A DNA stretch of 64,000 nt from contig CAYZTB010000004.1 in NCBI GenBank assembly GCA_964481195.1, positions 24,306 to 88,305 of the forward strand. Direction: 5' to 3'. Every line of letters begins with the position of its first letter. The stretch's first letter is position 1. This document shows, piece after piece, positions 14,469-15,404 of this stretch. The notes under the pieces were generated by a model, which saw only the letters and a list, made by a program, of their open reading frames with translations, had not been told where the DNA came from and did not search any database. The position numbers were made by a program, and so were the translations under genes. This stretch comes from an uncultured Bacteroidia bacterium (GTDB lineage Bacteria; Bacteroidota; Bacteroidia; Palsa-948).

Positions 14469-15404
14469 ATGTTTATCCAGCTGCAAAAAATCAGCGATAC
14501 TACCATAGAACAGTTTGGGGCTAATCTACATGTATTGAGGTTGGATCAAACACATCCTCATATAAGCGGCAACAAATTTTTTAAACTGAAATATAATATA
14601 GAAGAAGCCAAAAGAACAGGCAAGAATAAATTGTTGACATTTGGAGGGGCCTACTCCAATCACATCGCTGCAACAGCCGCTGTAGGTAAGGAATTTGGAT
14701 TTGAAACGTTGGGTGTTATTAGAGGGGAAGAGTTAGCCTCGCCCTTGCCATCCGCAAAGGAGTCTCTTCGGGAGAAGAGGAGGGAAATAAATCGTACGCT
14801 ACAATTTTCGCAGGAATGCGGCATGCAGTTACATTTTATTTCAAGAGACGAATACAGAAAAAAAGATTCGCCTGATTTTATTGAGAAACTAAAAAAACAA
14901 TTTGGCGATTTTTATTTATTGCCCGAGGGAGGAACCAATGAATTAGCGATAAAAGGTTGTGCAGAAATTCCGTCTTTCATAAATATTCCTTTTGATTTTG
15001 TTTGTTGTCCGGTCGGCACCGGAGGAACGCTATCAGGAATTATTTCAGCTTTAAAACCAAATCAGCAAGCCTTAGGCTTCTCTGCACTTAATGCAGCAGA
15101 TTATTTTGATAAGGAAGTACAGAAGTGGTTGTTTAATTGTCAAATTCCTCAATTGTCAAATTATCAAATTAATAATGATTTTCACTTTGGAGGCTATGCC
15201 AAACACAGTCCAGAACTATTAAAATTTATTTCTGCTTTCGAAGTAGCAAATAACATTCCCCTGGAACAAGTCTATACCGGTAAAATGATGTTTGGAATTT
15301 ATAATTTAATAAAGAAAGGACATTTCAAAAAGAATTCTACAGTTATCGCCATCCATACGGGCGGATTGCAAGGAAAACTGAAGCCTCTGCATCCCTCCCA
15401 GTAA
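14469..15404 (+). CDS. ACC deaminase / D-cysteine desulfhydrase family PLP enzyme
   Basis: [40 protein letters not shown]. Confidence 0.92.
14736..14788. repeat. Family C arm with a nested family D element (14753-14773), in-frame in the desulfhydrase
   Basis: GCCTCGCCCTTGCCATCC...GAGGAGGGAAAT matches 58800 GCCCCACCCTTGCCCTCC...GGGAGGGAAAT; the loop holds CAAAGGAGTCTCTTCGGG, matching 20800 CAAAGGAGTCCCTTCGGG. Confidence 0.7.
15138..15169. repeat. Degenerate 8-mer tandem array (TnTCAAAT x4) in coding sequence
   Basis: TGTCAAAT TCCTCAAT TGTCAAAT TATCAAAT; encodes [11 protein letters not shown]. Confidence 0.6.

Follow-up and report, generated by a model that had tools for sequence, protein, structure and literature searches.

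Element K, a 22-24 nt palindromic repeat of a Bacteroidia genome that behaves like a very small REP-type mobile element and is often nested in other repeats

Much work has been devoted to the small palindromic repeats of Proteobacteria, but hardly any to those of Bacteroidota and related groups. Repetitive extragenic palindromic (REP) sequences and bacterial interspersed mosaic elements (BIMEs) have been described together with Y1 transposases (REP-associated tyrosine transposases, RAYT, or TnpA-REP), as have REPs lying within genes and BIMEs of mosaic composition (Ton-Hoang et al. 2012, PMC3333891; Nunvar et al. 2010, PMC2817692). According to Di Nocera et al. (2013, PMC3733652, section 7), there are REP families regularly found 'inserted within' other palindromes, and the insertion sequences (ISs) IS1397, ISKpn1 and ISPpu9/10 target REP hairpins (Tobes and Pareja 2006, PMC1525189). 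The nesting of REPs in other repeats is hence already known; the motif described here, which we term K, works alike in a little-studied group of phyla. It is present in two copies in a stretch of 64,000 nt (the window), which corresponds to positions 24306-88305 of contig C4 in the 3.19-Mb assembly (36.7% GC) of an uncultured Bacteroidia bacterium. Below, C numbers denote contigs, G000 is the genome studied here and the other G numbers are relatives with which it was compared.

The K consensus, GCTCC(G/A)AAGGAG(T/C)CCCTTCGGG(A/G)C, is 22-24 nt long and can be parsed as GCTCC-GAA-GGAG-TCCC-TTC-GGGAC, with a core formed by the 7-bp inverted repeat CCGAAGG-AGTC-CCTTCGG. The genus-wide consensus is GCTCCGAAGGAGTCCCTTCGGGA(C), this genome mostly having AAA in place of its GAA. 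Two folds are available to the sequence: an 8-bp hairpin with the loop AGTC (-12.3 kcal/mol as RNA, -7.5 as DNA), or a pair of mini-hairpins, CTCC-GAA-GGAG and TCCC-TTC-GGGA. None of the six frames contains a stop codon. K is discrete, its boundaries are exact, and gain or loss involves a whole block of 22-24 nt; it behaves like a very small REP-type mobile element, unlike a chance match. A search of Rfam with positions 14000-30000 of the window gave no match at E values up to 1, and the K string was absent from the papers searched.

Like REPs and BIMEs, K is an imperfect palindrome of the 20-40-nt class found in many copies (a 24-nt hairpin in at least 24 copies here), both between genes and in frame within them, and in mosaics; its copy number is below the hundreds usual for classic REPs, and it differs from them in lacking a GTAG or CGTC tag and in that its two mini-hairpins, of 4-5 bp each, form a compact twin without a spacer. 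A further point of likeness to REP systems is that IS200-like Y1 genes are flanked or adjoined by K-like twins and by mini-hairpins that share both stems with K. Unlike a REPtron, there is no K-flanked cognate Y1 gene in this genome or genus, and the Y1 proteins concerned score as IS200/IS605 enzymes rather than RAYTs. Host-less target repeats exist here, unlike in the cases of Di Nocera et al. The preference of the REP-targeting ISs for a palindromic repeat family gives rise to a hierarchy of elements, as does that of K, but those are full ISs encoding their own transposase, whereas K is 24 nt long and encodes nothing. Miniature transposable elements with terminal inverted repeats (MITEs) have a target-site duplication of fixed length; K is one inverted repeat from end to end and, at 24 nt, is shorter than the usual MITE. 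Rickettsia palindromic elements (RPEs) are likewise palindromic, open on both strands and tolerated in frame in housekeeping genes; they are ~100-150 bp long and lineage-restricted, whereas K adds only six to eight codons, crosses phyla and, at 22-24 nt with no Rfam or literature match, departs from RPEs in length and homology. Pneumococcal BOX elements and the BIMEs of Escherichia coli are, like the repeats here, composites of small modules variable in number or presence; their modules, host phyla and associated genes differ, the hosts of K including heptamer-word arms tied to GxxExxY (PDDEXK_3) genes. A literature search on 'GxxExxY' returned nothing relevant.

Copies of K and their embedding in other repeats

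An earlier note on this DNA had reported that a short motif occurs twice, once in the hairpin loop of a repeat lying in frame in a desulfhydrase gene and once within a CAC^AAAG unit of another repeat, and all of this holds. The motif, GGAGTC(C/T)CTTCGGG, lies at 14759-14772 and 20804-20817 of the window, both on the plus strand; these are the only two matches at a tolerance of two mismatches, where 0.13 would be expected, and none of 100 shuffles has as many. The copies agree over 17 of 18 bases (CAAAGGAGTCTCTTCGGG at 14755-14772, CAAAGGAGTCCCTTCGGG at 20800-20817). The features at the two sites are as follows.

14463..15404, plus strand: gene for a pyridoxal phosphate (PLP)-dependent enzyme of the D-cysteine desulfhydrase/aminocyclopropane carboxylate deaminase type, a 313-aa open reading frame (ORF; Pfam PALP, E 1.1e-14) hosting copy 1
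14736..14789, plus strand: in-frame insert of 54 nt (18 codons); a GC-rich family C hairpin with a K-like piece in its loop
14755..14772, plus strand: K-like core of copy 1, making up most of the ~18-21 nt that are extra relative to the plain C hairpin of G008
20704..20749, minus strand: left arm (C4:45049) of an inverted doublet of CACAAAG words (family A'), with four words and no K
20767..20845, plus strand: right arm of the same doublet, its third word interrupted by K, with the architecture of the K-bearing arms at C5:2148, C74:4870 and C5:83304
20796..20819, plus strand: K element of 24 nt, GCTCCAAAGGAGTCCCTTCGGGGC, between ATACAC and AAAGAAC, removal of which restores a CACAAAG word

The second copy forms a hairpin of -11.3 kcal/mol as RNA and shares an 18-nt identity with a copy on C46. 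Across the genome the exact 14-mer occurs five times, the 21-mer consensus with up to three errors gives 23 matches, and the palindrome CC[AG]AAGG-N1-6-CCTT[CT]GG is found at 17 sites, against none for either of the latter two in the reversed genome, a control used for sequence motifs only, since reversal preserves inverted repeats and is invalid for counting hairpins. In total, the genome contains at least 24 copies of K. They are found in frame within coding sequences as well as 5' and 3' of genes, and in both orientations.

It had been proposed that the element targets pre-existing hairpins or repeats, and that the embedded fraction should be measured against random expectation. Under strict automatic criteria, by which a copy must have two or more heptamer words no further than 60 nt away or flanks that are homopyrimidine/homopurine and complementary, 13 of the 24 copies are embedded (nine in word arrays, four in C hairpins), against 0.33% of 200,000 random positions. 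By eye the figure is 19 of 24, in heptamer-word arrays, C hairpins or another K: 12 copies lie in arrays, and six in C-type hairpins, counting the window copy and a segmental duplicate on C12. Three copies, at C74:4834 (also one of the 12 array copies), C33:14362 and C18:48735, form a K-in-K family, in which an inner K of opposite orientation lies between ...AAAGG and AGTC... of the outer one. About five of the 24 are free-standing (C1:20123, C9:6343, C11:74380, C27:3432 and C64:13878), as are about half of the 24 copies inspected in congeners, which lie in unique sequence. The proposal is thus upheld by the strong enrichment, and by the K-less hosts at orthologous and paralogous sites described below, but not as an exclusive preference: nesting is enriched, yet it is not the rule.

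The position of K depends on the type of host. The ~95 plain C hairpins have loops of 3-6 nt, so that the 20-nt K-bearing loops of four or five C hairpins are clearly exceptional; the loop GCAAAGGAG(T/C)CCCTTCGGGAAA(A/T) recurs in C hairpins at C12:33711, C12:36285, C13:40440 and C46:10210. In the K-in-K family, too, the inner element occupies the loop. In arrays, by contrast, K is a side branch of the arm: in every one of the 12 copies it breaks a word at C(A/G)C^A(A/G)AG (TAAG in one copy), the third word in ten cases and the first in two (C8:9933 and C12:16104), and the same junction is found in congener G005. The structure-specific insertion that the earlier note had also put forward agrees with the first two settings and disagrees with the third, where insertion looks to be directed by sequence or homology rather than structure, because K keeps a fixed word phase on the arm side and is not in the loop. 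The suggested hierarchy among families stands: K is always the guest, in A arms, C hairpins and K itself, and no case of a host repeat inside K was seen. Over 73 copies from all sources, a perfect flanking stem of at least 5 bp is present at 14 (19%, against 6.4% of permuted controls) and direct flanking repeats of at least 5 nt at eight (11%, against 1.8%).

Nested copies may have multiplied together with their hosts, in which case independent nesting events would be far fewer than nested copies. We estimate some five to eight such events from the way in which the copies group: GGGAAA(A/T)GG is common to the four C-embedded copies, the K-in-K copies are built to a single design, and the variant of K changes with the dialect of the surrounding words.

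Host repeats with and without K

Comparison of hosts shows that K was added secondarily to pre-existing DNA, other repeats included, because congeners hold plain C hairpins at the same codon positions in two genes and because, between paralogous arms with and without K, the difference is an indel of exactly 22 nt. The first of these genes is that of the PLP enzyme, orthologues of which were found in 29 of 41 relatives. Between RG(D/E)EL and N.TL, the site is empty in G002, G005 and G030; in G008 it holds a plain 33-nt C hairpin (GCCTCCCCCAACCCCTCC-GAAG-GAGGGGAGAAA, read as ASPNPSEGGEK), in G004 another C hairpin with an AAAG loop, and in G001 a decayed insert, whilst G000 has GCCTCGCCCTTGCCATCC-GCAAAGGAGTCTCTTCGG-GAGAAGAGGAGGGAAATA. 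The second gene, on C46, encodes an ABC exporter, the linker of which is short and native in G001, G007 and G008. In G003 and G004 it contains the hairpin GCCTCACC(C/T)CCAACCCCTCTCC-CAAA/ACAG-GGAGAG(A)GGGG...ACAGCC (in short form GCCTCACC..CCCCTCTCC-CAAA/ACAG-GGAGAGGGG..CAGCC), and in G000 the same unit enlarged by two K-like pieces: CCGAAGGAGTCTTTTCGGA is added to the 5' arm, and GCAAAGGAGTCCCTTCGGGAAAA replaces the 4-nt loop. Both coding copies of K in G000 are read as AKESLRE.

For the comparison of paralogues, K was deleted in silico and the flanks then matched. On this basis C62:5512 resembles C25:21857-21908 (92% over 52 nt) and C29:36756 resembles C29:20297-20347 (91% over 53 nt), one exact 22-nt block differing in each case; C5:83304 and C10:68377 are a third pair of K-bearing and K-less arms. 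The window also contains an arm for comparison with the doublet at 20.8 kb, and a GxxExxY/PDDEXK_3 gene at 28604-28954.

29022..29070, plus strand: K-less arm of the same family as the 20.8-kb doublet, ...AAACAGCCCACAAAGGGCACGAAG, beside a GxxExxY (PDDEXK_3) gene

As with RPEs, the palindromic inserts in coding sequence are not disruptive: the PLP enzyme and ABC exporter of G000 and the ferrochelatase of G006 retain their frames and conserved motifs. In the ferrochelatase, a free-standing 24-nt K lies in frame inside the conserved MRY..PSI motif (GMRY-SRRDSFGA-SPSIE). The same ORF (G006:C66, L048, 1644..2759) holds two separate in-frame inserts at ~1905-1992, this K and the plain C hairpin SLTPNPSPAGEGNK.

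Occurrence in other genomes and possible modes of spread

Across nine congeners the number of K copies ranges from 0 (G001 and G002) to 17 (G006), with reversed-pattern controls of 0 everywhere, and in a 200-genome sample of the class K was found in 3 of 121 genera (reversed-sequence control 0). A first reading of the class sample, that K is genus-specific, was overturned by a 23-mer scan of all species genomes (one genome per species). The exact 23-mer is present in 37 contigs, from metagenome-assembled genomes (MAGs) labelled Ignavibacterium album, other Ignavibacteria, Chlorobi OLB5, Chitinophagaceae, Chryseobacterium, Flavobacteriales and Calditrichaceae, and four Ignavibacteria genomes contain 13-46 copies of the same variants (reversed control 0). 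Letter-perfect identity across phyla, combined with patchy presence, fits horizontal spread or strong constraint, and not vertical drift. The Ignavibacteria copies cap hairpins whose stems are unrelated, occupy the middle of a ~110-nt palindromic element, or stand beside an optional 20-nt mini-hairpin.

The ~110-nt element, with ends CCGCAGAGTC / GACTCTGCGG and K in the centre, was seen at L097, L112-L114 (the Ignavibacteria MAG G205), L111 and L125. The 20-nt mini-hairpin CCGTGCCTAAGGCAGGTGCA adjoins K in some of these elements and is missing from others, a modular gain or loss of mini-hairpins in another phylum.

Y1 transposase genes have similar mini-hairpins in their neighbourhoods. In the Ignavibacteria contig G210:C7 (L128), an intact gene (1061..1528) for a 155-aa IS200-like Y1 protein is bracketed by two direct copies of a ~60-nt unit (510-570 and 1537-1597), each with a K-like twin; this locus may be a REPtron or a small IS. 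In G207:C314, the K-like twin CTCC-GAA-GGAG-CCCC-TAC-GGGG lies ~100 nt from the end of a gene for a 161-aa Y1 protein, on the other side of which are GCTCC-TAC-GGAGC and GTCCC-TAC-GGGAC hairpins. Both proteins score as IS200/IS605 transposases (NF033573 above cut-off, with the RAYT model NF047646 below cut-off). In G000, the flanks of Y1_Tnp genes carry mini-hairpins such as GTCCC-TAC-GGGAC and GTGCC-GTA-GGCAC, and on C66 GCTCC-TAC-GGAGC stands next to GTCCC-ATA-GGGAC, these being the two stems of K with other loops. These neighbourhoods are suggestive of a REP-like, single-strand mechanism for K.

The reading that we favour, and to which we give an about even chance of being right, is that K is a very small non-autonomous REP-like palindromic element. 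A single-strand-DNA enzyme, probably a Y1 (HUH) protein of the IS200/IS605 type, would copy it in trans by acting on single-stranded hairpins, as RAYTs do for REPs. Hairpin-prone repeats would be favoured landing sites because their single-stranded loops are exposed during replication, and many nested copies would subsequently have spread with the host repeat, or by gene conversion between homologous arms, which would explain why most arms have K in the same slot.

Several observations weigh against this account. GTAG and CGTC tags are absent from the K consensus and its conserved flanks. The Y1_Tnp genes of this genome look frameshifted or fragmentary, and no K flanks any Y1 gene in G000, G006, G007 or G008, the Y1 genes of which are bordered by other mini-hairpins (CCACCTGC, TTCGTCCC, CCACGACCT and GCCCC...). 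Nor do Y1 gene counts follow those of K (G004 has eight Y1 genes and one K); over nine genomes, K copy number correlates weakly or not at all with the number of Y1_Tnp or PDDEXK_3 genes. A target-site duplication is not demonstrable: RC..RC flanks match in seven of the 12 array copies, about the level of chance, and AC..AC or GC..GC flanks cannot serve, because they are indistinguishable from the 3' end of K itself; a few copies elsewhere have direct flanks of 7-8 nt (TAAATCG at L107, AAGGGCTC at L098). The C hairpins at the same sites in congeners could be independent hits at a tolerant loop rather than orthologous inserts. Logan contigs from four microbial-mat runs, searched with 14300-15500, represented the same strain only and at low depth, with no K-less joint and no presence/absence polymorphism. 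Finally, the constant slot in the third word is equally well explained by inheritance and gene conversion.

This last point leads to the strongest alternative, less probable in our judgement but a real possibility, according to which K is not transposed at all, but is a module shuffled between repeats through homologous or microhomology-mediated recombination, gene conversion or template switching during replication. Arms would swap K via their shared words, and C hairpins would gain the TCCCTTCGGGA half via AAAGGAG microhomology between their apex and the left half of K. Slot and word phase are indeed constant in arms of different dialects, and the K variants track dialect, GGAGCCCC occurring in CACAGAG arms and GGAGTCCC in CACAAAG arms. 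The extra piece of the C hairpins lies between direct AAAGGAG...AA(A/T)GGAG repeats, and relative to the plain G003 hairpin only the right half of K is new; the excess of direct flanking repeats among the 73 copies, and the optional mini-hairpin beside K in otherwise identical Ignavibacteria units, are also in keeping with shuffling. What it leaves unexplained are isolated copies in unique DNA, such as the ferrochelatase insert and those in 5' untranslated regions, and the letter-perfect 23-mer across phyla. In the C-embedded copies, moreover, the left and right halves are imperfect complements, contrary to fold-back synthesis in situ.

Less probable again, and in our view unlikely, is that K is primarily a functional site under selection, for example a protein binding site or a stabilising or terminating RNA hairpin, which has been recruited into composite repeats such that nesting reflects function. 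K is more conserved than its flanks, being identical in C62 and C3 where the arms are only ~65-84% alike, and the exact 23-mer is common to several phyla; it also often forms the apex or centre of a larger palindrome whose stem varies, as reflected in the excess of inverted flanks. Against this stand the lack of an Rfam match and the presence of copies in every kind of position and both orientations; the range of 0-17 copies among congeners makes an essential role unlikely, and how K reaches new loci is left unexplained. That the window copies are alike by chance, or through low-complexity convergence of GC-rich hairpins with TTCG loops, is very improbable: CCCC-TTCG-GGGG apices are common in C-family hairpins, so the motif is partly generic, but the number of matches in the window relative to expectation, the absence of reversed-sequence matches in every genome searched and the identity between the C46 and 20.8-kb copies refute it.

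If K is instead a non-autonomous element copied in trans, as we favour, a bolder extension, which we regard as unlikely, is that it is among the smallest mobile DNAs known, a 22-24 nt 'parasite of parasites' moved by IS200-like Y1 enzymes across FCB (Fibrobacteres-Chlorobi-Bacteroidetes) phyla, and that C(A/G)C^A(A/G)AG may mark the point at which the heptamer words are opened, which would be the cleavage site of the array-associated GxxExxY (PDDEXK_3) nucleases. Were this so, the places where K has inserted would be a footprint left by nature, from which a substrate and a cut position could be put to the test for a large and uncharacterised family of nucleases; the fixed phase in heptamer words yields a concrete prediction for the biochemistry of these arrays. 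K also provides a clean, countable example of nesting, in which host repeats are preserved both in the presence and in the absence of the guest, demonstrates the in-frame addition of a 24-nt unit to conserved enzymes, and ties a cross-phylum family of mini-hairpins to IS200-like Y1 transposase loci. In practical terms, such elements break short-read assemblies and give spurious Pro/Ser/Gly/Glu/Lys-rich insertions in predicted proteins, which annotators should recognise.

Family B and other repeats

The earlier note had cited a third case of nesting, a family B core within a hairpin at 28493-28539.

28493..28539, plus strand: lone family B stem-loop, set against family B copies genome-wide, with the loop TGAGCTTATCCAA (core copy at 28503), a GTCC/GGAC stem and an extra outer inverted repeat, TGTCTGC/GCAGACA

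The hairpin exists, but its interpretation as a nested insertion was rejected, as the core is the stem-loop's own loop in clear family B copies elsewhere. Genome-wide, the core TGAGCTTGTCGAA forms the loop of such copies, and the stems differ from one to the next (GTGGGC/GCCCAC, GTCAACCC/GGGTTGAC and GGGTGCC/GGCACCC; in the window GTTGAC/GTCAAC and GGTGGTT/AACCACC). Only copies with flanking stems were counted as members of the family: the core alone, with up to two substitutions, is no commoner in the genome (84 matches) than in its reverse (79). The loop TGAGC(T/C)TGTCGAA is conserved, with wholly different closing stems, at 16459-16640 of the window and about 12 more sites (e.g. C12:10195, C18:48575, C47:17313, C28:2133 and C5:49717), which suggests a structured motif read through its loop. 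The loops in the window flank a tandem array upstream of a GIY-YIG gene.

At the locus orthologous to the 20.8-kb doublet, brx-ahcY synteny is kept only in G007, where there is neither a K-less intermediate nor a CACAAAG array. The G007 intergenic region (C3, L073, ~1380-1500, minus strand) instead holds words of the AACTTTA type and a plain C hairpin (CCTCACCCCCGACCCCTCTCC-CACA-GGAGAGGGG); the repeat families that have hit the brx-ahcY site vary from species to species.

Short-read contigs from two independent metagenome runs stop at the edges of the PLP enzyme gene's C/K insert (14674 and 14793 of the window); such repeats fragment assemblies.

An IS200-like Y1 gene at C18:2147-2610 of G000 is intact but for one frameshift in a G5 run (QEGFGG|IYSF*, followed by ...FTVSKKDV in another frame), making either a pseudogene or a homopolymer error possible; it is flanked by GCCCC-NNN-GGGGC hairpins. 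Upstream of the Y1 gene in G210:C7 is a run of GAC(G/C)CC-NTAG-G(G/C)GTCRAACATTTA hairpins.

Between nuoC and nuoD there is a K-bearing C hairpin (C13:40290-40604), and the N-terminus of NuoD has a further GC-rich hairpin, read as STPLSGEGLGGGG, ahead of the conserved LNLGPTHPATHG. A sister twin, GTGCC-GAA-GGCA + TCCC-TTC-GGGA, in which the second mini-hairpin is that of K and the first is different, was found at C34:23590, C41:25634 and C71:8957 of G000, the copy on C41 lying side by side with K in one array word.

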